From: a virus | Lineage: Duplodnaviria; Caudoviricetes | Length of the DNA: 63,515 bases | Direction: 5' to 3' (one strand) | Virus record (IMG/VR): IMGVR_UViG_3300050343_000155 | Span: 1-63,515 of that record | The notes under the pieces: generated by a model | Told to the model about the DNA's origin: nothing | What the model saw: only the letters and a program-made list of their open reading frames with translations | The model's database searches: none | Shown here: one piece after another, positions 1-26,488 of the stretch | How positions within the stretch are numbered: the first letter of the stretch is position 1 | Layout: every line of letters begins with the position of its first letter | Made by a program: the position numbers and the translations under genes

Positions 1-3000
1 GCTGTTCAGCAAGGCACTCCAGCTGAAATGCTTAGCCGATTCACGAAAATACCTGAGATAGAAAACGACTTTAAGGGAAAGCCTGACTCTGAGAAGCTTC
101 AAGCATATATAGATAGAGCAGACCTAAGTGAAGGCATGGGTCAGTTCATGAAAGGAGAAAACACTGAGGCTGTAATGTTCTCGGCAAAGAAAGTTCTCGA
201 TCTATCAGCGCACCCACAAAGTAGATCTTACAATCTGCCTGGAATATTCAAGGGCAGAAGCGTAAAGTCTATGCAGAACGTAAAGTTTGGTACTGGTAAG
301 ATTGACATTAGCAAATTGCTGGAAGGGAGAGCTTCAGAGGCTAATGTGAAAGGAAAGGTTTCTGAAAACAAGCCATCAGATCAGTTTGATGAATTTGTTG
401 AAGGGGTAGTATTTATGAGGCATCCTCTTCACGGAGACTCCTTTGTTGATTCTTACGGGAATATCATCAAGAGTGCTGAGCAGGTGTATATGTCAGGTGA
501 TGTCATCATCGCTTCTGGGAAAGTTAGATATGCTGGAAACTCTATTGAGAGAGGCAAGAAGTCAGAGAACATAGTGATAGAAAACCCAGAGCATTTCCGA
601 GCGTTTAATAACTTCATGTCTATCATGAAGCAGAGAAACCAGTCTCTAGCCAACGAGTCTACTGAAATGTTTGAAATGGCCTACAAGTCATTGACAGCTA
701 AGGATCGAGCAAGGTTTGCCAACCTAACCATAGACGAGCACGGTAACGTAATAAAAGGGAGAAGACTTAGGGGTACATCTAAACGCCTTGCAAACTCTTC
801 TGAGTTCGGAAGATTCAAAAATGAAATTGTAAGTAATCCAGAAAACTATATTGACAGACAGAGCATTGCAAACGAAAAGAAAAACCTAGAAGATCTTAGC
901 GCTCAAGAGCTCGTTAGTTTGATGAGGGGCGACGCTTTGGATAATTTAGCGACAAGAAACGACGATGTTGGTGTCCTAGCAGGAATCGAACTAATAAACA
1001 GGATGCAAGAAACAGGCAATGACATAGGCATTGCTGGAGTCCTGGATAGGTTGTCTGCGGTTGGAACAACAGCTGGTAGAATTCTCAGACACATGGCTGA
1101 ACTGAAGACAAGCAGTCCTCAGGGAATGGCAAGTGTGATAATTAAAAAAGCAGAAGCGCAGGGTAAGATTCTTTCTGAAGAGCAAAAGAACAAAATCCTT
1201 GAAGCCACCAAAACATACATGGCAGCTTACAAGAAAGCTCAAGACTTGCTGGAAAGAGGAATAGCTGGAGAGGACGTAGAAGCTGAGTTTAAAAAAGCGA
1301 AGAAAGACTTAAACGAAACTCAGTCTAAGCTTGATACTCTGGCTAATATGTATACGGAAAAAACCTGGTCCGAGATAGGCACTCAACTCGTTCAGGGTAA
1401 CTTGCTTACTATGATGTCTCAGTCTAGGAACGTGGTTTACAACCTAGCAAACGTAATACCGAAGACTGTAATTGATATTATGTCGATGCCTACTTCCAAG
1501 GCTTTTGAGCTCATGGGCTTACATAAAGAAAAGAGAAAGTTGTCTCTTGCTGGGTACTTGTACGCTTTAAGAAAGTTTGGGGCTGGATCCGTGGAGGCTA
1601 TGGAGCAGGTGATTACGGGCAGGGAAGAAGACATGTCTGAGTGGAGGATGAGCAGAGGGTTCATGCCTATTAGATCATTGATGGCTGCTATGTCAAGCGA
1701 CCTTCCAGAGGGTGTTACTCTCAGGAATGAAGTCAATCAAAGAGCTAAGCTTTTAGTTCAGGGTACTTTTGGAATTCCTGCCGAAGCCATGTTCAGGCTC
1801 TTAAGCTTGGGTGACGTTCCTTTTAGAAGGTTTGCTGAGGGTCTGGAACTTTACAGCCTTGCAAAAGCAAAAGGCCTTGAGGGTGATGCGCTTGCTCAGT
1901 TCTTAAAGTTTCCAGATAAAGCTAGCGCAGAGCAAGGGGCAACCGAGGGTAGAAAGCTAACCTTCCAGGAACCTATGGGCCTTGCGAGAGGGAGTATGTG
2001 GATCATTGATAACATCTCAAAAGGAATGGGTGAAGCATTTAAGAACGTTAAAGGCTTTGACGCTGAAGGGTTCTTTAAGTATCTCATTAGGCTTAACGTT
2101 CCTTATGTTTCTACGATAGCAAACTTTACCGAAGAGACTCTTACTTATGCTTCTCCAGTAGTTGGAATTGGAAAGATGGGTATTCAAATGGGTAACAAAG
2201 ATTACACAGAGGCATCTAAAACGCTGAGTAAGGTCATGGTTGGACAGGCGATAAGCACGACAGCTTTGCATCTCATCTCTCAGGGTCTTCTAAGCGGAAG
2301 TGTAGACTGGGAGGATGATGAAAAAACAAACCTCATGTACGATACATTCCCGCCAAACAGCATAAACGTTGACGGGTTAAGAAGAATGCTAGAGGGTGGT
2401 GATCCTGCTCCGCAGGCTGGTGATGAGTTTAGATCCTATCAGACGCTTGGGGTTTTCGGAACTATAATGGGTGCTTACGCTCACTCTACTTCTCCAGAAG
2501 CTGCAAAAGAAATGGCTGAACAACCCTTTAGCGGCAACAACGCACTAAAGAAAGTGTTCGGATTCGATAATGTATCAGTGATTGCGTACATGATGGATCA
2601 GAGCTTCCTTCAAGGACTGAATGGAATCACAAGTGTAATCTCAAGCACTAAGGATCCTGAAGATTTTGAAAGGGCTTTCTTTAGATATGCAGAAACAATA
2701 TCTAAAGCCTTCTCCTCTATGTTCCTTCCAAACGTACTCAGTGGGGTTGACCAATCAACCAGGGAGTTTATGCCAGACAAGAGAGATGTAGATCTAGCCG
2801 ACAGAATTAAAAACCACGTAAGAGAAAGGACCTTTAACACTGGTGGCCTTCCAGTAAAGGTTAATTGGAAGGGAGAGCGTATTGATCAAGCTCCTGTGGG
2901 AGGAAACCAGTTTGCCTACTATATGTTTGACGCAACTAAAATGCGAGAAGCTTCTCAGGATGACACCTCTATAGAGATATTAAATCTATACCTAAGGACT

Positions 3001-3414
3001 GGAGTGTTAACCAAGGCTGTTGGGACTCCTTATTATGCTTCTTCCGTGTATAGAAAAATACGTAAGCCTTCGGTTCGTAGAGGTAAGGCTAAAAAAGCCT
3101 ACGAAGCTTTGGGTGCTACTTACAGTTTTTTAGAAAACCCAGAAGAGGATTTTAACATTAAGCTTACAGCCGAGGAGGTAAACAACGCTCTTGAGATGAG
3201 TAACGTTCCGAGATACAATGAAATTAAGAGTTTTATTCAAACAGAAGAGTATCAAGCCATGACAGACGTTGAGAAGATAGAGTCTCTTGATGATATCAAC
3301 GGTAGGTATAAATCTTTACTTTCATACAATCCTGACGGTAGCTTTATGGAACACAGCAAGTACATACTGGACTTAATGGAGTCAAGATATTTAGAGCAAA
3401 ATGGACAAAATTAA
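1..3414 (+). CDS. C-terminal part of giant internal virion / polyvalent protein (continues from 57516..63515 across the window junction)
   Basis: The frame is open from base 1 (GCT GTT CAG ... ATG at 28). The ORF starting at 57516 ends exactly on a codon boundary at 63515. The sequence is helical and resembles large polyvalent/ejection proteins. Confidence 0.75.
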   Translation, partial: AVQQGTPAEMLSRFTKIPEIENDFKGKPDSEKLQAYIDRADLSEGMGQFMKGENTEAVMFSAKKVLDLSAHPQSRSYNLPGIFKGRSVKSMQNVKFGTGKIDISKLLEGRASEANVKGKVSENKPSDQFDEFVEGVVFMRHPLHGDSFVDSYGNIIKSAEQVYMSGDVIIASGKVRYAGNSIERGKKSENIVIENPEHFRAFNNFMSIMKQRNQSLANESTEMFEMAYKSLTAKDRARFANLTIDEHGNVIKGRRLRGTSKRLANSSEFGRFKNEIVSNPENYIDRQSIANEKKNLEDLSAQELVSLMRGDALDNLATRNDDVGVLAGIELINRMQETGNDIGIAGVLDRLSAVGTTAGRILRHMAELKTSSPQGMASVIIKKAEAQGKILSEEQKNKILEATKTYMAAYKKAQDLLERGIAGEDVEAEFKKAKKDLNETQSKLDTLANMYTEKTWSEIGTQLVQGNLLTMMSQSRNVVYNLANVIPKTVIDIMSMPTSKAFELMGLHKEKRKLSLAGYLYALRKFGAGSVEAMEQVITGREEDMSEWRMSRGFMPIRSLMAAMSSDLPEGVTLRNEVNQRAKLLVQGTFGIPAEAMFRLLSLGDVPFRRFAEGLELYSLAKAKGLEGDALAQFLKFPDKASAEQGATEGRKLTFQEPMGLARGSMWIIDNISKGMGEAFKNVKGFDAEGFFKYLIRLNVPYVSTIANFTEETLTYASPVVGIGKMGIQMGNKDYTEASKTLSKVMVGQAISTTALHLISQGLLSGSVDWEDDEKTNLMYDTFPPNSINVDGLRRMLEGGDPAPQAGDEFRSYQTLGVFGTIMGAYAHSTSPEAAKEMAEQPFSGNNALKKVFGFDNVSVIAYMMDQSFLQGLNGITSVISSTKDPEDFERAFFRYAETISKAFSSMFLPNVLSGVDQSTREFMPDKRDVDLADRIKNHVRERTFNTGGLPVKVNWKGERIDQAPVGGNQFAYYMFDATKMREASQDDTSIEILNLYLRTGVLTKAVGTPYYASSVYRKIRKPSVRRGKAKKAYEALGATYSFLENPEEDFNIKLTAEEVNNALEMSNVPRYNEIKSFIQTEEYQAMTDVEKIESLDDINGRYKSLLSYNPDGSFMEHSKYILDLMESRYLEQNGQN

Positions 3415-3826
3415 AGACACCAAGCTAGGGGGTTGGCTAAAGGCCAAAGCTCCAGGCATTCTAAGCCTCGTAGGGGACCTTCTGCCAGACAAGGGGGGTC
3501 TTGGTATTGTAAAGAACCTATTGGACAAAGAGGAGGGTTTAGATCCAGCCGAATCTAAAGCAGCTTTAGATGCTGAGGTTGAGTTTCAGAACAACGTATC
3601 TAGACGCTGGGAGGCTGACATGTCTAGTGATGTAAAGATTGCTAAGATCATTCGACCAGCAACTATGATTGTTCTTATGCTGTTCTTTATGGTGATGATG
3701 ATATGGGATGGGCTTGACGAAAGCTTCATGCCTAAGGAGAGCTACGTGTCTCTTTTAGAGATACTTATGCTTACGGTTTTTGGGGCGTACTTTGCAGGAA
3801 GAACTATCGAAAAAACTAAACGATGA
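3401..3826 (+). CDS. Putative holin (3TM-holin-like)
   Basis: Two C-terminal hydrophobic helices, RWEADM..IRP motif, and a GAYFAGRTIEK ending typical of phage 3TM holins. Confidence 0.65.
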   Translation: MDKIKDTKLGGWLKAKAPGILSLVGDLLPDKGGLGIVKNLLDKEEGLDPAESKAALDAEVEFQNNVSRRWEADMSSDVKIAKIIRPATMIVLMLFFMVMMIWDGLDESFMPKESYVSLLEILMLTVFGAYFAGRTIEKTKR

Positions 3827-4900
3827 AACACCTAGCTCTTATGCTATGCCTGCTCTCACAGTACGTGATTGTAGGACAGGACTCTTGCGCTGTATTCGGC
3901 AACGAACAATGTTCAACCCAGAATGATGGGGTATGTCCCAGAGCCGATGCAGTGGGAGGAGATCGACTACGTATACCACATATACTACACCGACAGCTTT
4001 CCAGATAGCTACATACCTGAGGACATCATCATGGATGCTCACGAGCATCTGAACGAGGAGTTCGATGAAGCCATGTTAAGCTTCGATCTTGTTTCGATTG
4101 TGTACCACGACTTCGATGAGTTCTGGGGTGCTCCTGTAATCTTAGAGCAAAACAACATTTGTGTGCCGTACAGTCAGAGCGGGTTTCATATGGATGGATG
4201 CCTACGTAGAGGACCTGGTGTGGGATAGAGAGATATACATGAACGTGCATATATTCCCTAAGTTTTGTAACGGAATACTGGGATTTGCCTGGACATCTTA
4301 CAGCTAGCACTGAGCTGGAGGGGTGTGGGTTAGGTCTGACGTGTTCGGAAATTACGGTCCTCAGCTTTCGTATGACGACCAGAGATCAAAACAAAACTCT
4401 AATACACGAAGTGGGTCACTACGTTGGATTGCAGGCATGTATTCAAGGCGTAGACTTCTGCGGTGAAGACTTAGGTCCTTGCGATGAGTCAGGTGACTAC
4501 GTTTGCGATACACCTCCCACTAAGGTGAACTTTAACTGCGAGAACCCTATATGTCCTCCAGCTCTGTATGGACTACGAAGCCAAACAATCACATGGATTA
4601 CTATGTGGATTCATGTAGAACTAACTTTACCCCTGGTCAGATTGAGCGCATCCACTACATACTACCTATCTCTCGTCCAGGCATCACTGATCAAGAAGCG
4701 TACTGTCTAGGAGACATAAACGGAGACCACGTTGTAGGTATGATTGACTTGATGCTTATGCTAGTCTAACTGGGACAATCCAGGTACGTGGACACCTGGA
4801 GACCTAAACGGTAACGGATACTTCAATGTAATTGACTTCTCAGATACTGCTAGGTCAGTGGGGTACAATATGTTACGGTGCCGAACTTGATCCTTTTTAT
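3823..4900 (+). pseudogene. Frameshifted secreted zinc metalloprotease (M43/pappalysin-like) with C-terminal dockerin/EF-hand-like repeats
   Basis: Pieces in alternating frames: signal-like MKHLALMLCLLS, LIHEVGHYVGL, GDYVCDTPP, NHMDYYVDSCRTNFTPGQIERI, CLGDINGDHVVGMIDL and GDLNGNGYFNVID. There are several indels, which may be sequencing errors. The end coordinate is approximate. Confidence 0.75.
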
Positions 4901-6717
4901 AGGGAGGACGCTTCATCTTGCATCTCCAAGTATGTTCCCTCATCAATCTCCTCAAGAGGAGCCTGCTTGAATCCATGCTCATTATGAAGCAAGAAAGATA
5001 CAGACTTTACGTTCTTGAAGTTCTTGTCGAGCCACTCCTTGATGCCGTCCAGCTCTTCCTTACGATAGTAAATAGTAACAGATACAGCATTATCAGACCA
5101 CTCAGCTTGTAAGCGTTTAATAACTTCCAACTGATCCAAGGCTGTCATGTCGTTAGCAAACATGGTTCCTTTAGGGAACTTACATGGAAAGCTTACAACG
5201 ATAGTAGACTTGTCTTCTGTGCCATCAAAGTTTAGCACGAACTCCACAGGGTACCCGTGCTCCCTGGCGGCATGTGCCAGACTGCTATCAGCTGACATTC
5301 TGATTCGTCGAATATAATATTCGCTGTATCCTGGATGCGCTCCTGGTGTAACGCCAGCAAGTAGACTAAGCGTTCCAGATGGCTTGACTGTTGTAAGTTT
5401 AATGGATGCTGGATATCCTGCCAGTTGAGAGTATTCTTTGTCATATGCTCTGATGTAGTCATAGCAATCAGCCAACCAAGATCGCTGCTCTTCAGTAGCT
5501 TGCAAGTATCCAGTGACTCCGATACCCATACGCATATTCTTGTGTACGATATCCTCGGTCTCCTTCACAGCACATTTGATGGCCAAGCTATGCTTGTTAA
5601 TTCTATAAAGATAACGCGCAACCTTCTTGAGTTCTTCGTAGTGCTCGATGTTTGGTAGATAAATCTCAGCCAAGCAGCAAGTCTCGAAGTTAGCTAGCGA
5701 CTGCTCAGCACAAGGATTAAACCCCTGCACGTCTGGGTCTGGGTACTCGACTTCAAAAGTGCGTCCCATGCGGCGTGAAGCCTCTAGATTGATGAGTCCG
5801 TATGGTTCTCCGTTACCGTTGTATCCTTCCCAGAACTCAGCGGGTAGCTTTGAGATGTCATCACAAACGACAGAGTTGTTGCTCATCGCTCTCCAGTTAG
5901 GAATACCTCCTAGGTCCCATCGCTTTGCTTGCAAGTACTCTACATCATCGCAGTCTCCGATAGCAATCTGCGCAGATCTACGAACGTTACCAGCTACAAC
6001 AATTCTACCGATGATGTTCATTACATCGAGGCAGTCAACAGGGCTGAGCCGCTGACCTGATTTCTTGTTTAAGATTTCATTGATCTCTTGCATACCCCAG
6101 ACCAGATCCTCAGGCCCTGAAGCTGTTCCTCCGAATCCTTTAATGGCAGAGCCCTTAGACCGAATAAGATGTGTAGCATATGTAAAGTCCTCACCTGTAA
6201 CAAATGAAGCCTCCAGGACGCGCTGTAAAAGCTCTACCCACCCCTCACGGCTGTCAGGAACAATAAAGTCTGCGTCGTTCTCGTCTATACGCTCTACCTT
6301 AACTCGGTTCTTAACCTTTGGTAGCTGGTACACGTTCTCTCGCTGGATATTAAAACCTACACCTGAGCCAAGCATAAGCATTTCAAACGCCCATGTAAAT
6401 GGACGAATAGGATCATCTACCACTACGAAAGCGCAGTTCTGTAGAGACGGTAACCCCAATCGGTCAACTGTTTTAGTACCTAGCTGCCAGAGAAATCGCC
6501 CTGCCACAGTGCCTTTCAGCTCCATCATTATCTTCTTCAGCTCACCCTCTTCGAATTGGGTAAAGCCTACGTTGAGTTGGTCACGACACGCATCAATCAC
6601 TCGATCAACGGTGTCCTCCCACTCTTCTGTTTTGCCATCGGCAGTTTGTCTGGAATAGGTACGCTTATAGACAGCATACCCTACCTCGCCCCAAGGGACA
6701 AGTGAAGGATCATACAT
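4897..6717 (-). CDS. nrdJ: Class II (adenosylcobalamin-dependent) ribonucleotide reductase, monomeric RTPR type
   Basis: YKRTYSR, LQNCAF, VVAGNVRRSA, GFNPCAEQ and TTVKPSGT motifs; no beta subunit gene nearby. Confidence 0.9.
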   Translation of the reverse strand: MYDPSLVPWGEVGYAVYKRTYSRQTADGKTEEWEDTVDRVIDACRDQLNVGFTQFEEGELKKIMMELKGTVAGRFLWQLGTKTVDRLGLPSLQNCAFVVVDDPIRPFTWAFEMLMLGSGVGFNIQRENVYQLPKVKNRVKVERIDENDADFIVPDSREGWVELLQRVLEASFVTGEDFTYATHLIRSKGSAIKGFGGTASGPEDLVWGMQEINEILNKKSGQRLSPVDCLDVMNIIGRIVVAGNVRRSAQIAIGDCDDVEYLQAKRWDLGGIPNWRAMSNNSVVCDDISKLPAEFWEGYNGNGEPYGLINLEASRRMGRTFEVEYPDPDVQGFNPCAEQSLANFETCCLAEIYLPNIEHYEELKKVARYLYRINKHSLAIKCAVKETEDIVHKNMRMGIGVTGYLQATEEQRSWLADCYDYIRAYDKEYSQLAGYPASIKLTTVKPSGTLSLLAGVTPGAHPGYSEYYIRRIRMSADSSLAHAAREHGYPVEFVLNFDGTEDKSTIVVSFPCKFPKGTMFANDMTALDQLEVIKRLQAEWSDNAVSVTIYYRKEELDGIKEWLDKNFKNVKSVSFLLHNEHGFKQAPLEEIDEGTYLEMQDEASSL

Positions 6718-6758
6718 ATTAAAAAAATTTAAAAATTAAAAACGGACTACTAAGATAG

Positions 6759-7259
6759 TCAATAGTCCTTAAAATACTTCCACACCCTGTACGTCTCTAA
6801 AGACTTGAGGTCCAACAAGTTAAGAGTTGTTATGACATCCTCTCGATCTTTTCGAGTGTACTTTTTCTTGTATGAATCTCGCTTGTGCGACACAAATACA
6901 TCTTCCACATTCTCCTCGCAGTAAGACACTAGGTCTTCGCGATCAACGATACTGAATCCACCCTCTTCTGGCATGTCGAATGCTATAATTTTGGCACCCC
7001 CATACATCCATCCTGGGTTTCCAGCTACGTTTTTAAACTCACACCAAATCTCATCTGGTAGGTTATTGCCTTTTACATCTACTCCCCACCTTCCTTCTAC
7101 CTCTTCGTGTTGCATCCAGAAATCAACATGCATATGCACATCGTCTTTTCTACCTGACTTTACAACTTGAAGTCCTAGGTCTCTTGCCGCACGTTCAAAG
7201 CGTACTTCAGCTACCCTTCCTGTTGAGAACGAATATCGTTTCCTGTTTTGACTTTGCAT
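6759..7259 (-). CDS. Putative PD-(D/E)XK nuclease-like protein
   Basis: HVDFW...GVDVKG motif; start reassigned to MQSQNRK. Confidence 0.5.
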   Translation of the reverse strand: MQSQNRKRYSFSTGRVAEVRFERAARDLGLQVVKSGRKDDVHMHVDFWMQHEEVEGRWGVDVKGNNLPDEIWCEFKNVAGNPGWMYGGAKIIAFDMPEEGGFSIVDREDLVSYCEENVEDVFVSHKRDSYKKKYTRKDREDVITTLNLLDLKSLETYRVWKYFKDY

Positions 7260-7491
7260 CGTGGTTTGCTTCAGAGTGTTCAAACGAAGCCTCCTTAACA
7301 AGGTCAAGCTCCTGATTCATCATTACGCGAATACCCGCAACCATGTTGGCTACGTTCCCAGAATCCTCACGGGGATCTCCGTTCTCATCGAATAGCTCTT
7401 CAAAAAACTCATCAATGAGTTCATGAAGCCTTACGGTGGCTATCCTGTAGCTAGCTCCTAGCTGTTCCTTTGTTAACTCGTTTTTTGCCAT
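7207..7491 (-). CDS. Hypothetical protein
   Basis: 94-aa ORF overlapping its operon neighbours. Confidence 0.6.
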   Translation of the reverse strand: MAKNELTKEQLGASYRIATVRLHELIDEFFEELFDENGDPREDSGNVANMVAGIRVMMNQELDLVKEASFEHSEANHDAKSKQETIFVLNRKGS

Positions 7492-7939
7492 ATCCTAGTT
7501 CTTTAAGTTTCACTATAGCCTGCTCAATCTGGTGTTTGTTTTTACAGATGAACAAAGCGGGGACTGGTTCTCCTGAGTCTATCAAGTGCTTAAGGAACAG
7601 CTTCCAACGCATCGGGAAGTCATGATGCGAAGGAGTGTACCCTTTGGTTTCAATAATCCATTCTCCGTTTGGTCCTACGAAGTCTGGAGTGTATTTAATG
7701 GGAAGGACTATCGCACCGCTACGATCCGACAAGTCTTTCCGCTTGGTAGTCATCTTCAAGTAAGTTCCTGGATACCTAAACTTCTCTACGAGCATGTACT
7801 CGTGAGTTTCATAGGTGAAGTTGATCTTATGCTCAGACAATAAGTCTGCACAGGTCTTCTCTAGTCCGCTTTTATACTTACCTAAATTGCGCTTTTTTGC
7901 TGATTTGCGCTTAGGGGTCCCGCTTTTCTGTCGTTTCAC
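7451..7939 (-). CDS. T7 endonuclease I-like Holliday junction resolvase
   Basis: YKSGLE, YTPDF and IETKG motifs. Confidence 0.8.
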   Translation of the reverse strand: MKRQKSGTPKRKSAKKRNLGKYKSGLEKTCADLLSEHKINFTYETHEYMLVEKFRYPGTYLKMTTKRKDLSDRSGAIVLPIKYTPDFVGPNGEWIIETKGYTPSHHDFPMRWKLFLKHLIDSGEPVPALFICKNKHQIEQAIVKLKELGYGKKRVNKGTARS

Positions 7940-7956
7940 TCAGGCTAAGATACAGC

Positions 7957-9774
7957 CTAAGTGTCTAAAAACGAAGAGTTCATGGGAAAAACAAAAGGTT
8001 CTTGCTTGCCCCCCTCCAAATCAACAGACTCAAACATCATTCTCTGAGTCTTGAAAGCACGGAAACCAGTTCTAGACGTGTTCATTTCAAATCTAAATGG
8101 TTCTTCAAGCGGGGTAGGCTCTCCGCCTGTCTCTACGTCACGCACCTTACGTACATGAAACTCTGTAATCTTACGCTCAGATGGTGTTGGGTGTTGCACC
8201 TTTCTGTGTATAGTCAAGAACGAGTCAGCTCGATTAACGAACTTACCTCCACCCTCAGTGTCCTCAGCGTATGGAGCTACAGGTAGGCCGTCCTCACCCT
8301 TAATCCGCTGTGAAGCAGTAACAGCATGCATGTTCAACCACACTGCGATGTTGTTTGCTGTAGAGAATGTAAGGAACTCAGAGGCTGCCTCGTAGTGATA
8401 CTCGTGTACACCGATACCCGACTTACCCATGTCAAGCTTGAGGCTGTTGTATGGGTCTACAAACACAGCGTCAACCTCTTGCTGCTTCATTACCTTCTCA
8501 AGGAACACGATGATATCTGAGTAACTGTATACCTGTTTGTTACTGATTACAGTAAAGTACTTGCCTACCCATTCGTATGCCTTCTTGCGCTCCATGTAGT
8601 TCATAGAGGAGATGGGTTTGTTTAGGGCGAATTGTATAAGGGTCATCTTCAATGAAGCTGTTCGGTTCTCTGATGAGTATACAACCCACTTCCACCCATG
8701 CCGCACGGTAGCGTTGACCATGAGGTACAGAGCCATTGTAGTCTTACCTACATTACTATGCCCATTTATGATAGTGAACTCTCGCTTGTACCTGAAGTAC
8801 TGATCGAGATCCTTGTCACCCGTGTCCAAGCCTACAGGTATGCGTCCATTAGCGTAATCATCAATCCACCTGAAGTCCTCATCGTCCGATGATATGAACG
8901 ACATGTCCCCGTCATTAACGAGCATCTCACGCTGAGCCTTCTTCTCGTCGTCGATGGTATCTCGGATAGGGTCTTGCTTACCCTTTTCGATGGCGTCTCG
9001 TATGGTGTTTACGGTATGCTTCTCGTCATCTACATCACGCTTGAGTATCTCACGAGTAAGTACACGGACTACCTCGTCCTCTTCCATACGTCCAGCGGCT
9101 ACATAGCCACCACACAGCCTAGCAGCACGAAGCAGGGTAGCATGTTTCTCCCCGTCATCGCACTGACGTATCATACGTGCAGCTAGATTTAACTTTAAGT
9201 AATCCGTGTAAACACCTGATTGTGAGACAGCTACCTGTGATTCACTCTTCTCTGTAGCGAACGCACCGAAGGTAGATGATTCATCCTTGATGATGATTTC
9301 TGGGTCGTATGACTCGAAGCATGCGCGAGACTCATTGATGCCTGACTCGTCTACCTCTAGGTCATACTGCTTGCCGAAGTATGTACGTAACGCTCGGAAG
9401 TGATCGCGGTGCCGCTCAGGGTGAGTTATCTTGACTAACGCCTTAAGCCCATCACCCGAAGGAGAAACCCAACAGCTGTACACATACGGGTCCGTACTGA
9501 GAAGCGCTTTGGATGCTGTAACATCAATATGATCGAAGTCAAGAACAATGTATCCGCTATGTTTTTCAATTGATTGGTCTTTTCTGTCGCCAAACTCACC
9601 GCTGAATAGTACAACGGGTAGGCTTTTTTTGAAATCCTTTTCTCCACCACGAACAGCTTCAATCGTTGGCGCAGAAGTCCCCTCCTGTATTCTTTTGAGG
9701 GCAGTCACAATCGGAATCACATGGGCATCCGCCTTTGACTTTTTGTACAGGTCTTTGTATATCGTTACGTTCAT
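7957..9774 (-). CDS. Primase-helicase: N-terminal BT4734/VirE_N-like primase domain plus C-terminal DnaB/SF4 helicase
   Basis: N-terminal KKSLP, LDFDH and SPSGDGLK; C-terminal Walker A GHSNVGKT, VFVDPYN and HVRKVR. Confidence 0.8.
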   Translation of the reverse strand: MNVTIYKDLYKKSKADAHVIPIVTALKRIQEGTSAPTIEAVRGGEKDFKKSLPVVLFSGEFGDRKDQSIEKHSGYIVLDFDHIDVTASKALLSTDPYVYSCWVSPSGDGLKALVKITHPERHRDHFRALRTYFGKQYDLEVDESGINESRACFESYDPEIIIKDESSTFGAFATEKSESQVAVSQSGVYTDYLKLNLAARMIRQCDDGEKHATLLRAARLCGGYVAAGRMEEDEVVRVLTREILKRDVDDEKHTVNTIRDAIEKGKQDPIRDTIDDEKKAQREMLVNDGDMSFISSDDEDFRWIDDYANGRIPVGLDTGDKDLDQYFRYKREFTIINGHSNVGKTTMALYLMVNATVRHGWKWVVYSSENRTASLKMTLIQFALNKPISSMNYMERKKAYEWVGKYFTVISNKQVYSYSDIIVFLEKVMKQQEVDAVFVDPYNSLKLDMGKSGIGVHEYHYEAASEFLTFSTANNIAVWLNMHAVTASQRIKGEDGLPVAPYAEDTEGGGKFVNRADSFLTIHRKVQHPTPSERKITEFHVRKVRDVETGGEPTPLEEPFRFEMNTSRTGFRAFKTQRMMFESVDLEGGKQEPFVFPMNSSFLDT

Positions 9775-12333: not shown

Positions 12334-12698
12334 ACGAGTTCTTGTTTTAGATTTTCAGCTAGACCCTCTAGCCTTTTGATTTGGATTCTAATTGTTGTAA
12401 GCTTCTCTTCGATGCTGTTATATCGGAGATGTACATTGCATAGCCTTACAGCTAGCAGGTACTTGTCTTCATACCCATCCCATGAGAACAAGTTGGCTTC
12501 GTGATGACGAGAGTGGTGTACTACTGTGCTGTGGTCTCTGTCAAAGCTTTTGCCTGCTTCCGTCTTGGTCATGTGCTGAGCCATAGCAACCATCAGTGCG
12601 GCTCGTGCCTGAACTTGTGGTGCCTTTCTAGATGTGTTGGGGGTGAGGTCGAGGGTAGCATAGTACTCCTCTTGTAGCCTTTTGATGTCATCATTCAT
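12330..12698 (-). CDS. DnaA C-terminal-like HTH DNA-binding protein
   Basis: AGKSFDRDHSTVVH matches the DnaA domain IV signature GxxFxRDHsTVxH. Confidence 0.7.
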   Translation of the reverse strand: MNDDIKRLQEEYYATLDLTPNTSRKAPQVQARAALMVAMAQHMTKTEAGKSFDRDHSTVVHHSRHHEANLFSWDGYEDKYLLAVRLCNVHLRYNSIEEKLTTIRIQIKRLEGLAENLKQELV

Positions 12699-15132: not shown

Positions 15133-15645
15133 TCATAGTGTGTCTGATTTAGGGATTCGAAAGAAGTGGATGCACACATCGTCTGCATCAAGCATGGCTT
15201 CACCTCGGTAGTAGATACCACCAACAAAGTCAGCCCACTCATCCATCGGCATCGACTCAGTAGTTCCATGCAGGGCATCGGTAGCTTCCTTGATACACCC
15301 CATGTCTGTGGGTAGGTACTCACCATCGTACATTACCTCGCAGTCCATCTGATTCCACATCAACCACTCTCGTGTGTACCTTGATTTTGGCTCTGTATCC
15401 CATAGTGGGTTGACCTCAATTATCTTGAGTATCTCATGTTCACTCTCTAGGTCATTCATTACGATGATGTCCTGTGTGCCGTCTGTATGGGTGATTATCT
15501 CTTCGTGTTCTTCCTTCATCAGGAGGGCAAGAAGCCTAGCCTTGTGTTCCTTGGCTTGTTCAAGTGTCTTAAAGAACTGAACCGTGGTATCGGAGTAGCC
15601 CTCGGCTAGTCCACATACTCCATGTAGGGATGCATATAATTTCAT
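15133..15645 (-). CDS. Hypothetical acidic early protein
   Basis: Start reassigned to MKLYASL, downstream of the promoter and the CAAAATCTCAA leader. Confidence 0.6.
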   Translation of the reverse strand: MKLYASLHGVCGLAEGYSDTTVQFFKTLEQAKEHKARLLALLMKEEHEEIITHTDGTQDIIVMNDLESEHEILKIIEVNPLWDTEPKSRYTREWLMWNQMDCEVMYDGEYLPTDMGCIKEATDALHGTTESMPMDEWADFVGGIYYRGEAMLDADDVCIHFFRIPKSDTL

Positions 15646-15680
15646 TAGATTGAGATTTTGATTTGGCAACATTGCCGCTA

Positions 15681-15712
15681 CAAAGATAAGACTTAGTTTT
15701 CAGAATTCCAAA
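15681..15712 (-). promoter_or_regulatory. Bacteroidota sigma70 promoter (early)
   Basis: Minus strand TTTG-20 nt-TATCTTTG. Confidence 0.75.
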
Positions 15713-17488: not shown

Positions 17489-17881
17489 TTATGACAGGAA
17501 GTCAGTGATGCTGTCCTGTGCATTCTCGATGCGCTCCTCTTGCATATCATGAGCAGCCCGCATCTTTTTTGAAAACCACAACTTGAACTCCATCATATCC
17601 TCACCATGACAACCCCATGAGCCATTCTTGATGACGCTTCTGCGGTGTCCGTTTTGATCGTACATGACGAGGAAGGCATATATATATGGAGCGGCTCTTG
17701 CAAAGCCATCTTCGATTCGATACTCGATAGCTATCTTGACTTGCCTCTTTCCGAACTCATTGCGGTGAGGTAGTAAGGTGCTTGTGAGTATGGACTTGTG
17801 ATTGTCGGGGTTGATTCCGACTACTTCTAGTCTGTCCCATGCACCTAGCAAGTGGGTCAATGTGTTGTGTGTACATTTCAT
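17489..17881 (-). CDS. Hypothetical early protein
   Basis: Start reassigned to MKCTHN, downstream of the promoter and leader motif. Confidence 0.6.
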   Translation of the reverse strand: MKCTHNTLTHLLGAWDRLEVVGINPDNHKSILTSTLLPHRNEFGKRQVKIAIEYRIEDGFARAAPYIYAFLVMYDQNGHRRSVIKNGSWGCHGEDMMEFKLWFSKKMRAAHDMQEERIENAQDSITDFLS

Positions 17882-17917
17882 GTAATTGAGATTTTGATTT
17901 TGACGTTGTTGTCGATA

Positions 17918-17949
17918 CAAAGATAAGGGACAGAATCCATTAATCCAAA
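17918..17949 (-). promoter_or_regulatory. Bacteroidota sigma70 promoter (early)
   Basis: Minus strand TTTG-20 nt-TATCTTTG. Confidence 0.75.
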
Positions 17950-17957
17950 TTTATTTT

Positions 17958-18218
17958 CTAAGCCGCTGATTCTGAAGGGATTACAACCACTCCATCAACT
18001 TGGTCTGAGTAACACCAGTGTCCGTTGTTCAGGGTCAGTACGTAATGCTCATCCAAGTTCACGCTCTCCACCTCATCCCCGTATTTCTCGCGAGGGTATT
18101 CCGTGCGCTCTACGCCTGTTACTACTGCAATTTTCTGTGGGTCAGAGCCGAAGCCCCCACGATACACTACCTGTGTACCCTTGCGAATTATCCGCTTGTT
18201 CATAAACTTTGTTTTCAT
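17958..18218 (-). CDS. Hypothetical protein (small beta-barrel/SH3-like)
   Basis: RKGTQVVYRGGFG...LNNGHWCY. Confidence 0.55.
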   Translation of the reverse strand: MKTKFMNKRIIRKGTQVVYRGGFGSDPQKIAVVTGVERTEYPREKYGDEVESVNLDEHYVLTLNNGHWCYSDQVDGVVVIPSESAA

Positions 18219-18544
18219 TGTTCTATTTTTTTACCTGTTTTCGTATTCACCCATCCAACACCCTCGACCCACTCCTCATCTGCATACAAGATTTGCTCTA
18301 ACTCGTCGATAGTCATCTCGTAGAACTGCTCTTTTGTCATGTTCATTTCATCCCCGTAGGTCTTATACATCGTATCCCATATACTCATTGCGACATCATT
18401 AAAAATGGATTCAAAAATTTGTTTGGTTTAGGTCGCTCCTCTACGGGATCGACGGGTATCTCGCCCCTCATTTGCGCAGTGAAGCGATTGAGGACAGCTT
18501 CTAGGAATACAGAGTATTCAGCGTCTGTCATGTCGTGCTTGTAT

Positions 18545-18820
18545 TCAGGCTTCTTCATGAGATAATAAAATTGATTTGATTTTAGGACTCATCCTGTCGA
18601 GCATGGACTCAGCCACGCTGGTTTCAGCGTCATCCAAGTCTTCGAGGTATCCGAGTTGGTCAACCTCTCCATCATCGCCCACCTCAGGTTCAAAGTAAGC
18701 CGCTTCGTAAACCGCCTCATCAAAGGCATCACGTAACTCGTCATTTCCTACAGGTCTGCCTGCTTCCTTGTATGAGCATAGCATATAGAACTTCTTTTCT
18801 TCAGGCTTCTGCATTGTCAT
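18545..18820 (-). CDS. Hypothetical acidic protein
   Basis: D/E-rich 91-aa ORF. Confidence 0.55.
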   Translation of the reverse strand: MTMQKPEEKKFYMLCSYKEAGRPVGNDELRDAFDEAVYEAAYFEPEVGDDGEVDQLGYLEDLDDAETSVAESMLDRMSPKIKSILLSHEEA

Positions 18821-19232
18821 TATCTTTTTCTATGAAAACACTTTTGCTTGCCTCTACATCGTAGTAGGCATCTTCGTTGCGCTCCTTGCATAATGCATAG
18901 GCAGAACGAGAGTGAGTAACCTTTTCCGATACGTCGAAGACGATACATTCCTTGTCAATCCAAGTGCCTACGGCATATGAGACTCCGCTAAGTTTGGATT
19001 CCTTGAGTAGCTTGCGCACCTCGGTCGCATACTTGAGCCAGATGGTGTGGAACGTGTTGGCATCGCAGATATCCAAAGGGATTTTGGTTTCTCCTGACAG
19101 ACCGCCTACCATGAAGCCCCTATAAGGTACTTCAAAGTCGTATCCGTCTGATGTGATTAGGGATGAGCCACCATCCATGAGGGTTCTGCCATAAGCAAGG
19201 CGAACAGCGTGTGTTGAGAACATTGTATTCAT
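18801..19232 (-). CDS. Hypothetical early protein
   Basis: Start reassigned to MNTMFST, downstream of the tRNA-like element. Confidence 0.6.
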   Translation of the reverse strand: MNTMFSTHAVRLAYGRTLMDGGSSLITSDGYDFEVPYRGFMVGGLSGETKIPLDICDANTFHTIWLKYATEVRKLLKESKLSGVSYAVGTWIDKECIVFDVSEKVTHSRSAYALCKERNEDAYYDVEASKSVFIEKDNDNAEA

Positions 19233-19254
19233 ATTGAATAGATTAAAAAAATTA

Positions 19255-19336
19255 GAGCGGCTCAGGGACTCGAACCCTGCGACACTGACCTCCATCCCTG
19301 TTCCCCTCGCGATGGGTACTTAGGTAGGTAGCCGCT
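19255..19336 (-). ncRNA. tRNA-like element (acceptor stem and T-arm, no canonical D or anticodon arm)
   Basis: Perfect 7-bp AGCGGCT/AGCCGCT stem; T-arm CAGGG-TTCGAGT-CCCTG; interior ACCT/AGGT and CCATC/GATGG. Confidence 0.7.
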
Positions 19337-19348
19337 GATAGTGATAAG

Positions 19349-19711
19349 TTACTCGACTACATCGAGCCATTTAGAGTAAGGGAAGTTGTTTCCCCCAAGC
19401 AGGTAAATGCAGTACGAGCCATTGCGACTTTCGTAAACAGTCTGCCCTTCGAAACTGAATTCAGTTTCTGTGCCTACCCACACCGCATACTCGTCCCCTG
19501 TTCGAGGTGAGATAGCTTTGATGTACTTACTACCAGAGGTAGTCTTGAATACCTCGAATGGTTCTCCTTGAACCACAAGGTTCTCGTCTGCGTCGATCCC
19601 GCTTGACGTGTCGAAGCCTACACCATTGCCACCGATGGTTTTTGCTTGGAAGGTTTGACCAAAGGTTGCAGACGCCATTGAGATGGCAAGGATGAAAAAG
19701 AAGTTTTTCAT
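19349..19711 (-). CDS. Putative exported early protein
   Basis: N-terminal signal peptide MKNFFFILAISMASATFG followed by a beta-rich body. Confidence 0.65.
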   Translation of the reverse strand: MKNFFFILAISMASATFGQTFQAKTIGGNGVGFDTSSGIDADENLVVQGEPFEVFKTTSGSKYIKAISPRTGDEYAVWVGTETEFSFEGQTVYESRNGSYCIYLLGGNNFPYSKWLDVVE

Positions 19712-19731
19712 AATAAAGAAATAAATAAATT

Positions 19732-19784
19732 GAAACTGACACTACAACGTAGTGTTTCGCCTACTTAAGGCTCATCAGAGTTCC
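19732..19784 (-). ncRNA. Hammerhead ribozyme (type I)
   Basis: Minus strand: GGAACT [CTGATGA] GCCT-TAAGT-AGGC [GAAA] CACTAC-GTT-GTAGTG [TC] AGTTTC. All core nucleotides and three stems are present; GUC cleavage is predicted between 19738 and 19737. Confidence 0.9.
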
Positions 19785-19914
19785 TAACCTGCGGACTCAT
19801 CGTCATCATCCGCTTGAGTGATTGTTTGCTTTTCCCCTTCAGGGGAGGAATCGTCCTCAAATTGAGCCGAACACAAGGACGCTATCGCAAGAGCACCCAT
19901 CAGTAGTAACGCTC

Positions 19915-20082
19915 TCATTTGGAGGAGGAGTTTACGAGGTCTTCAAGGCGCATCTGCTCATCGCAGGAGAGTGCATCGAAGCTTGCAGTGCAAGTGAATG
20001 CAGAGCCAAGGAGTTGAACATCATTGAAGAGAGCCGAAGCCATTTGCGCTTTTTTGCGCTGTGTATCTGTGCTGTTGAGCAT
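19915..20082 (-). CDS. Small hypothetical early protein
   Basis: Start reassigned to MLNSTDT, after the promoter and CAAAATCTCAA leader. Confidence 0.5.
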   Translation of the reverse strand: MLNSTDTQRKKAQMASALFNDVQLLGSAFTCTASFDALSCDEQMRLEDLVNSSSK

Positions 20083-20119
20083 AGGATTGAGATTTTGAGT
20101 TTGGCTGAATTGCCGACTG

Positions 20120-20151
20120 CAAAGATAGAACATACTTTCCATCTTTCCAAA
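20120..20151 (-). promoter_or_regulatory. Bacteroidota sigma70 promoter (early)
   Basis: Minus strand TTTG-20 nt-TATCTTTG. Confidence 0.75.
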
Positions 20152-20379
20152 TTTATTTTTCTACCCTTTAGGGTAATTAGTCAATGAAGAGAGTATCGTA
20201 ATGAGGCATATCCGTAGTCCAGCGGACAGCATGGTGCGCTTCCTCCACGGGGTCGAACACGTAGTCGCTCGAAGGAACTTCCTTGAGGAGACACCATTCA
20301 CTCCCATCTTTGAGGAGTTGCCCAGCCGCCCAACTCTGAGCGTCTACAAGCTAGGAAAGCACATCTTGGTGCGGAATTC

Positions 20380-21630
20380 TGATTCCCCAAGGGGGAAGAT
20401 AAAAGAGTAAATTGACATAAATCTATGATTTAAAGGGTTTTATAACTAATGAAATGATAACTACGTTATCAGAATGGAGCAGTGTCAGCAATCAAAGCTT
20501 CAGCTTCAAGGCGCTCCGCCTCTATCTGAGCAGAGCGGAGTCGAGCCATCGCTTCCTGAGGAGTCTCACCCTCTAAGAGGGTAAGCATTTGCTGCTTCTT
20601 ACGAACCTTTGGTTCGACTACTGGAACCTCTTTACGAGGTTCGAACGGCTGTGCCTCGCCACCGTCGGCGGCGTTGACGACTTTGGTCTTCTTGACCTTG
20701 CCAACCTTGTTGGCAGTTGAGGTCTTAGCTTGAGTTAACTCAAGACCAGCTTCTGACGTCCTCTTAGGACGACGGACAGCCTTTGACTTGCTCTTCTTCG
20801 AAGAGCGTCTCTCTGCTGTTTGCAGAGCAAACAACTCCTTGTTCAGAACGGAACGTTCTGCTCTCTTCATCTTCTTACCAGAAGATAGAAGGGCTTCGAT
20901 TTCCGACTTTCGGTCTGACTCCTTAGAAGTCAAGGACTTCTTAGAGGACTTCGACTTAGAAGTCTTAGAAGACTTCGACTTAGAAGCCTTAGAAGGCTTC
21001 TTCTTAGCCTCCTTCTTAGGAGGCTCTGGAGTTGGAACATCGATGGAATCGATGAAAGAACTTAGAGAAGCCATAGCTTCACTAAGGTTAGACTTCTTCT
21101 CCTCAGAAGGAGAATAAACAAAGCTGTTAACAGCTTTTTTCAAGGTCTTTACCAAGACCTGCTTTTGTTCGAATGTCTTTGACATTGTTGAGAGATTTGA
21201 GTTTCCTCAAGCTGGTCGACTTCCAAAACCAACTTAAGAGATAAAGAGTAAATGAAGAAGTCATAAGACTCCTTCTTCATATACTCTATCTCTACTCCAT
21301 TCAACAACGGTATTAGCTAGCTAATACTCCTACGTTGACTACCAATGACGATCCCTTAAGGGATTCAATGCGTTGGAGGAAAGCCCTCAGTTTCAGCCTC
21401 TTGAGCATCTCTTCTTGAAGAGATAGTTAACCTTCAGTATTGAAGGTTGTTATCTAACCTAAGAGGTTAGGGGGAGGATTGACAGCGGTCTCTCTTGAAC
21501 TACGTAGTAGTTTAGCTTCAAGCTGTTTCTAGCCAATCGGTCTTATTCCTTTGATTAGTAGTTAGTTAACTACAATCAACTCTTAACTTCGTAGAAGTTA
21601 GCTACTGACTTGGTTAGCCTAAAGGCTAAA
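20380..21630. repeat. Dense array of short, non-identical inverted repeats (micro-hairpins)
   Basis: Dozens of 5-9 bp stems with 0-4 nt loops, e.g. 20456-20470, 20790-20806, 20844-20860, 21120-21137, 21498-21512 and 21584-21600. Confidence 0.85.
20469..21185 (-). CDS. Lys/Ser-rich basic protein, first gene of the early arm
   Basis: 238-aa open frame, A-rich leader resembling the other early leaders, low-complexity KSKSSK tracts. Confidence 0.65.
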   Translation of the reverse strand: MSKTFEQKQVLVKTLKKAVNSFVYSPSEEKKSNLSEAMASLSSFIDSIDVPTPEPPKKEAKKKPSKASKSKSSKTSKSKSSKKSLTSKESDRKSEIEALLSSGKKMKRAERSVLNKELFALQTAERRSSKKSKSKAVRRPKRTSEAGLELTQAKTSTANKVGKVKKTKVVNAADGGEAQPFEPRKEVPVVEPKVRKKQQMLTLLEGETPQEAMARLRSAQIEAERLEAEALIADTAPF

Positions 21631-26411: not shown

Positions 26412-26488
26412 GCCCTCGTAGCTCAGCTGGATAGAGCAACAGCCTTCTAAGCTGTGGGTCCTAGGTTCGAGTCCTAGCGGGGGTACCA
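26412..26488 (+). tRNA. tRNA-Arg(UCU)
   Basis: GCCCTCG/CGGGGGT acceptor, D-arm GCTCAGCTGGATAGAGC, anticodon loop CTTCTAA, T-loop TTCGAGT and an encoded CCA. Confidence 0.95.

Follow-up and report, generated by a model that had tools for sequence, protein, structure and literature searches.

Perreault et al. (2011; PMC3088659), in the portion of the paper available, described prophage hammerhead ribozymes that flank single genes or short gene blocks whose identities are not constant, that cleave in vitro and in E. coli, and whose proposed role was the processing of long polycistronic phage transcripts. In its accessible text, a 2019 review (PMC6765202) still calls the purpose of bacterial and phage hammerheads undetermined. 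The preliminary description of the DNA analysed here held that hammerheads are known in phages and that their roles are largely uncharacterised. The element reported below adds one more example to this phage habit, known since 2011. We consider it likely that it is a genuine type I hammerhead self-cleaving ribozyme, carried by a marine tailed phage within a polycistronic minus-strand transcript. Self-cleavage itself is likely, judging from family membership and the intact core. From hammerhead chemistry and the proposal of Perreault et al. (2011) we infer that the flanking genes are transcribed as one unit, and on the same two grounds we give an effect of cleavage on expression about an even chance.

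The window, that is, the whole stretch of DNA analysed, is an entire virus record (63,515 bases) whose genes include those for a portal protein, a tail fibre, a primase/helicase, and a ribonucleotide reductase. According to the PHROG matches, ribonucleotide reductase, primase/helicase, and exonuclease are encoded on a minus-strand arm, and portal, virion, and tail-fibre proteins on a plus-strand arm. The runs containing this sequence were labelled marine or seawater. The hammerhead sits among successive small ORFs of the minus strand, with the divergent region (~21.3-22.1 kb) on one side and the replication genes on the other, a position that plausibly fits an early region. Its parts, in the order in which the minus strand is read, are as follows.

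19732..19784, minus strand: hammerhead motif as a whole (sequence; MFE fold; sole descriptor match in the window; leave-out covariance model R2)
19785, minus strand: unpaired A directly 5' of stem I, candidate tertiary contact (family conservation; putative role)
19779..19784, minus strand: 5' strand of stem I, GGAACU; the upstream TAG stop ends on its G19784
19772..19778, minus strand: catalytic core strand CUGAUGA, C3 to A9 (sequence)
19759..19771, minus strand: stem II, GCCU/AGGC, with the 5-nt loop UAAGU (sequence)
19755..19758, minus strand: core GAAA (G12, A13, A14, A15.1); A19755 pairs with U19739
19740..19754, minus strand: stem III hairpin CACUAC-GUU-GUAGUG (sequence and MFE fold)
19738..19739, minus strand: U16.1 and C17, with the predicted cut between C19738 and A19737 (sequence)
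19732..19737, minus strand: 3' strand of stem I, AGUUUC, the first 6 nt of the predicted 3' cleavage product (sequence, MFE fold, family)
19730..19731, minus strand: unpaired AA directly 3' of stem I, candidate tertiary contact (family conservation; putative role)
19712..19737, minus strand: A/U-rich leader of 26 nt that the predicted cut would leave on the downstream mRNA (sequence)

From 19784 to 19732 the 53 bases of the minus strand read GGAACU CUGAUGA GCCU-UAAGU-AGGC GAAA CACUAC-GUU-GUAGUG UC AGUUUC, a complete type I hammerhead motif, with loops closing stems II and III and stem I left open. The core contains CUGANGA, GAAA, U-H, A15.1-U16.1, and G10.1-C11.1 (the G19771-C19759 pair). Stems I, II, and III have 6, 4, and 6 (+1) bp, respectively, and the element aligns over its full length to our models R1 and R2. 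Thus, every part that the preliminary description had claimed (core, stem II, GAAA, stem III, cut site, and stem I) is present on the minus strand where it was placed. The claimed geometry was borne out as well, with a predicted cut after C19738 and a 26-nt leader to the ATG at 19711, 26 being also the mode of the family. The word "complete" is justified by the full core, the three helices, and membership of a large covarying type I family. The 26-nt leader (19712-19737) contains no Shine-Dalgarno sequence. Stem I consists of one G-C, one C-G, one G-U, and three A-U pairs; because of this make-up and of the A/U-rich stem III, folding of the element may be slow. The MFE fold of a 66-nt stretch was exactly the hammerhead three-way junction, with an ordinary folding energy (z -1.32; 18 of 200 shuffles of this stretch fold equally well).

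The genes and signals around the element were then considered.

20120..20151, minus strand: promoter-like TTTG-N20-TAnnTTTG, one of three copies (repeat with conserved leader and ATG)
19915..20082, minus strand: 55-aa ORF, first of the presumed transcription unit, with a conserved ATG at 20082 (the 55-aa homologue in viral locus L098 has the same Met)
19784..19918, minus strand: upstream ORF of 44 aa with a signal-peptide-like N-terminus; its TAG overlaps stem I by one base (sequence)
19349..19711, minus strand: downstream ORF of 120 aa with a hydrophobic, signal-peptide-like N-terminus (sequence)

The hammerhead therefore lies between co-oriented genes of one presumed transcript, which is the intercistronic layout of phage hammerheads. 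Two details of the upstream ORFs may be recorded. For the annotated 75-aa ORF (19915-20142), the conserved ATG at 20082 is the likelier start, giving 55 aa, and the stop of this ORF overlaps the start of the 44-aa ORF as ATGA (19915-19918, minus strand), which suggests translational coupling just upstream of the ribozyme. The six neighbouring proteins matched no Pfam family and only two PHROGs, both of unknown function, with nothing for the 44-aa ORF. The 120-aa protein had a weak match to a function-unknown PHROG (E 6e-4), and its protein-atlas matches (0.78-0.79, below 0.8) were at noise level.

The promoter-like repeat occurs in three copies on the minus strand (20080-20151, ~15645-15712, and ~17880-17949) with a mean column identity of 72%. 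In each copy, TTTG-N20-TATCTTTG is followed by a conserved leader, in which UCAAAAUCUCAAU occurs, and by an invariant ATG that opens a small ORF. These are probably repeated early promoters sharing a 5' UTR. TTTG-N20-TAnnTTTG is what we take to be the Bacteroidota promoter consensus. All three matches to TTTG-N17-21-TAnnTTTG in the window are the three repeat copies, and their number is not enriched (3 vs. 1.35 expected; 15 of 100 shuffles reach 3). Between the 44-aa and 120-aa genes, the scan found no sigma-70-type promoter and no terminator-like site. A terminator reading of stem III was rejected, the stem being A/U-rich and the scan having called no such site. As to the downstream gene having been called early, the place was upheld, in the arm of small minus-strand ORFs and ~330 nt downstream of a promoter-like repeat, while the timing is only plausible.

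To place the element in a family, a viral-contig collection was scanned with the window's core and stem II, the loop being left free (20 specified bases), and 92 viral-contig stretches carried this pattern. Without its last base, the pattern gave 96 matches in the 92 loci plus the window. The majority of these (88 of 96, 59 unique sequences) were full type I hammerheads, in which the pattern leads into a stem III hairpin and U-H and stem I has 4 bp or more. Only 0.73 of 96 would be expected to pass with shuffled flanks. Among the eight that failed the descriptor, L026, L048, L050, and L069 (the last cut by a contig end) were still matched by the covariance model, and L020, L030, L049, and L080 had no covariance-model match either. 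The search pattern that gathered the family came from the core and stem II of the window itself, and agreement in these parts is therefore built in.

An alignment (A2) was made from the 47 of the 59 unique sequences whose stem III spans at most 16 nt, the 12 with a longer stem III being excluded for alignability. In it 97.0% of the cells were paired, against 33-41% in slid controls, and the stem I cells were 100% paired. Two-sided changes occurred in all six pairs of stem I and in six of the seven pairs of stem III, or 12 of 17 pairs overall; stem II was invariant here because the pattern itself fixes it. The A2 rows were picked by a descriptor that demands the stems, and therefore the shuffled-flank test (0.73 of 96) is the unbiased control. 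The covariation score was reached by none of 500 shuffles, in this alignment and in the larger one described next alike.

Model R2 was built without the window and its near-identical relative. It matched the window at 19728-19788 with 66.4 bits (E 1.3e-14), its sole match there at E<=1. No second copy was found in the window; with model R1 and filters off, three weak extra rows appeared (E 2.4-8), all lacking the hammerhead core. In the 92 viral loci (807,136 bases) R2 gave 156 matches, many of them beyond the pattern-picked copies. The 108 distinct sequences aligned by R2 (alignment A5), a model-fitted set that leans towards structure, showed two-sided changes in 15 of 17 pairs. Stem II, including that of copies not selected by the pattern, had them in three of four. 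The core columns of these 108 members are invariant except at position 7, GAAA is invariant in all of them, and at position 17 there are 105 members with C and 3 with A. Stem I is almost always exactly 6 bp long, with a G-C outermost pair in 91 of 108. Judged from the alignments, the invariant core and the maintained pairing show purifying selection on catalytic competence, beyond the mere presence of the element.

Two other loci of this collection deserve mention in their own right. L029 has nine model matches within ~7.3 kb (2229-9487, minus strand; 26.5-69.8 bits), an array with a ribozyme in many successive intergenic gaps, exceeding the two- and three-fold clusters mentioned in the available text of the 2011 paper. 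L088 has a type II hammerhead (12563-12627, plus strand; RF02276, 43.1 bits, threshold 37) as well as a type I copy of the family, and thus both topologies occur in one phage.

The same layout relative to genes recurs across the family: the upstream stop falls at stem I or within it, and a start codon follows ~26 nt past the predicted cut. An ORF of at least 40 aa starts within 80 nt of the cut in 49 of the 59 unique hammerheads. The distance from cut to start is 19-40 nt in 41 of 59 and 25-28 nt in 27 of 59, with a mode of 26 (12 cases), the value found in the window; the ORF calls were mechanical, and some first-ATG picks are wrong, e.g., in L033, whose second ATG is at 26. On the other side, 56 of 59 have, within 150 nt upstream, the end of an open frame on the same strand that is 40 codons or longer. 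Its stop overlaps or abuts stem I in 27 of these 56 and falls 1-13 nt before stem I in 22 more, so that 49 of the 59 hammerheads have a stop inside stem I or at most 13 nt before it. The downstream proteins of 49 family members fell into 38 BLASTP clusters, and this diversity makes the ribozyme a general intercistronic device that is tied to no gene family. For a fixed spacing between hammerheads and start codons, a search of the openly accessible literature surfaced only Perreault et al. (2011). The uniform order of stop, cut, ~26 nt, and start poses the question whether cleavage matters for downstream translation or stability, or whether tight packing alone accounts for it; the tight spacing may reflect genome packing only.

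We propose the following course of events for the window. Transcription would probably begin at the promoter-like repeat near 20120 and proceed through the 55-aa and then the 44-aa ORF; if 20151-20120 is indeed the promoter, the transcript would carry the 55-aa ORF, the 44-aa ORF, the hammerhead, the 120-aa ORF, and further ORFs. Once the 3' strand of stem I (19737-19732) is made, the three-way junction would fold and the RNA would be cut cotranscriptionally between C19738 and A19737. By the type I strand order, stems II and III remain with the upstream fragment, which would extend 46 nt beyond its intact stop and have a structured 3' end with a 2',3'-cyclic phosphate. The downstream mRNA would carry a 5'-OH, the 6-nt strand of stem I, and 20 A/U-rich bases leading up to the ATG of the 120-aa gene. 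Such a cut would likely uncouple the downstream message from the upstream one in stability and translation and provide it with a short, defined, unstructured leader.

The relatives of this locus bear on another explanation, namely that the hammerhead is genuine and active and travels as a passenger with exchanged small accessory-gene cassettes, its cleavage having no selected effect on expression. A BLASTN search with 19300-20200 found nothing in the GenBank phage collection. Two viral contigs (L001 and L002) encode a downstream protein 97-98% identical to that of the window and retain the hammerhead, its only two substitutions falling in loop III (GUU to AUA); these differences are consistent with the structure but too close to inform. 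Downstream of the 120-aa gene a 164-aa protein is encoded, and relatives of it were found in six viral loci. Two of them (L101 and L103, the same two contigs as L001 and L002) have the window's hammerhead. In another (L102, 2414-3429), a different hammerhead with other stems I, II, and III is found (57.4 bits); there the upstream TGA stop lies inside the CUGAUGA core, a 35-aa membrane-like ORF starts 24 nt past the cut, and the leader is similar to the conserved one that follows each of the window's three promoter-like repeats. The remaining three (L098, L099, and L100) had no hammerhead match at E<=1. Of these three, ORFs were read in L098 alone (2694-3435), where the segment comprising the 44-aa ORF, the hammerhead, and the 120-aa ORF gives way to a 48-aa ORF. 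The element is thus dispensable, being missing from three of six related loci, from L098 together with flanking genes.

Assembled contigs from four marine RNA-library runs were also compared over 18000-21500; such contigs do not show RNA ends. In a contig of run X16, position 19232 is joined to 19791 via 162 other letters, and this insert replaces exactly the hammerhead and the 120-aa gene. A contig of run X18 joins 19232 to 20009. The left boundary, 19232, is common to the two runs, which suggests that it is a recurrent recombination boundary of an accessory segment. Among the 21 matches listed, no contig piece spans 19704-19790, and contigs of two studies (X15 and X18) end at 19703 and 19702, 34-35 nt short of the predicted 5' end, which decides nothing on cleavage or transcription. 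From the differing relatives and the X16 contig it follows that hammerhead-led small genes behave as exchangeable accessory cassettes here. This variation among loci, the exact swap in X16, and the missing tie to a gene family are what a passenger would lead one to expect. Nevertheless, a core intact in 108 of 108 distinct members, with pairing strictly maintained, argues against it, and the fixed position near start codons is hard to explain if cleavage were neutral, though packing could yield it. We therefore hold this explanation to be improbable.

Very improbable, in our estimate, is the proposal that the element is catalytically poor in the cell, a minimal hammerhead without contact between stem I and loop II that would provide stabilising hairpins at most. 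In its favour, stem I is open and just 6 bp long, and no pseudoknot, stem I bulge, or internal-loop partner was identified in the element. Moreover, nearest-neighbour folding in context does not favour stem I: in a 161-nt context the MFE structure retains stems II and III and loses stem I (z -0.09). However, the family conserves features that resemble a tertiary contact. An unpaired A precedes stem I in 103 of 108 members (A19785 in the window), and unpaired A's follow it, the first in 97 and the second in 92 of 108 (A19731 and A19730). Stem II is 4 bp in the family, and loop II is 5 nt long in 94 of 108 and begins with U in nearly all, as does the window's UAAGU. These unpaired purines and loop II are candidates for, and in our reading probably form, the tertiary contact that natural hammerheads need for fast cleavage at cellular Mg2+; as conserved positions, they are without covariation. 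Hairpins alone would not keep an invariant core, and the prophage hammerheads tested by Perreault et al. did cleave, according to the available part of that paper (PMC3088659).

The low Rfam score also speaks for a poor catalyst. The preliminary description had proposed the Rfam hammerhead models as a check, and formally this check failed, the element lying below gathering (the RF00163 threshold is 34 bits). At gathering thresholds, Rfam reported over the whole window a tRNA only and no hammerhead family; the tRNA gene (26412-26485, plus strand, 67 bits) has the anticodon loop CUUCUAA, from which alignment reading gives the anticodon UCU. In E-value mode on 501 nt, the element matched Hammerhead_3 in a wrong register (19.9 bits vs. 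a threshold of 48.5) and RAGATH-1-hammerhead in part (17.3 bits vs. 56.3), and Hammerhead_1 (RF00163, clan CL00010) gave no row there. Lower overlapping rows of the same clan are suppressed, and therefore any Hammerhead_1 match scored lower. E-value mode over the whole window yielded no further ribozyme candidates. Sibling hammerheads in L029 scored 36.2, 27.8, 27.3, and 24.8 bits on Hammerhead_1 (threshold 34), and none of the 12 pattern-defined siblings scanned was reported at gathering. The window element is, then, a sub-threshold member of the known type I family; a gathering threshold is the curated cut-off of a single model and does not define the ribozyme biologically. This sub-family escapes the Rfam thresholds (neither the window copy nor any of 12 siblings was reported), so that routine annotation undercounts phage hammerheads, as against the 156 matches that a family-specific model finds in 807 kb of viral loci.

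The descriptor (CUGANGA, stem II hairpin, GAAA, stem III hairpin, U-H, and stem I, on either strand) matched a single locus in a scan of both strands of the window. In 1000 dinucleotide-preserving shuffles of the window, a lenient version (stems I/II/III of 4/3/3 bp) gave four matches in total and a strict version of the observed quality (6/4/6 bp) none. A rate of 0.004 per window is not negligible across many windows, and conservation and covariation are therefore the decisive evidence. That the hammerhead consensus arose by chance in phage DNA of moderate A/T content, as scans of very many windows will sometimes meet it at the lenient level, is refuted for practical purposes, since none of the shuffles reaches the observed quality, the element belongs to a large covarying family, and its near-identical relatives conserve it with changes confined to loop III.

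The genuine, self-cleaving hammerhead that we favour is a clean and conserved example of hammerheads punctuating phage operons, and it occurs in a marine phage with leaders devoid of Shine-Dalgarno sequences. A bolder extension, which we think rather unlikely, is that the hammerhead and its fixed ~26-nt leader form a portable, promoter-independent expression module that is swapped together with genes for small secreted or membrane proteins, the fresh 5'-OH end being needed for efficient initiation in non-Shine-Dalgarno hosts. If this were true, the downstream gene would gain a short unstructured 5' end like that of a promoter-proximal gene, and the case would parallel the cleavage-dependent translation reported in RNA viruses (PMC13725137, in its available text).

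Among known systems, the type I hammerheads in the 5' UTRs of chrysoviruses and other RNA viruses (NAR 2026, PMC13725137) also lie directly upstream of an ORF, and in the accessible portion of that paper cleavage is reported to be essential for translation initiation. Those viruses, however, are eukaryotic RNA viruses with cap-independent translation, and such a dependence has been shown for no phage hammerhead. The type I hammerheads of phages and prophages (RF00163; PMC3088659) are closer: as far as the available text describes them, they have the core, the topology, and the 6-bp stem I in common with the window copy, the Rfam Hammerhead_1 consensus likewise having a 6-bp stem I, and they too are intergenic, among co-oriented small genes of varying identity. 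The window has a single copy in its genome, whereas Perreault et al. (2011) stress clusters in the part available and the sibling locus L029 has nine matches. Unlike RF00163 members at threshold, the window copy scores below the Rfam cut-off.

In synthetic insulators of the RiboJ type, a hammerhead placed before the ribosome-binding region fixes the downstream 5' end regardless of the upstream sequence. RiboJ is an engineered derivative of a type III hammerhead of a satellite RNA, and after its cleavage the downstream RNA retains a hairpin, whereas the window ribozyme would leave only 6 nt there. The HHphage variant of the haloviruses HF1 and HF2 (Perreault et al. 2011) is likewise upstream of the start of an early gene, by 13 nt, and, in the text available, a transcript 5' end was mapped near the cut. 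HHphage is described there as a core variant in an archaeal virus, proposed to be salt-tuned, whereas the window combines a standard core with a 26-nt leader in a marine bacterial-phage context.
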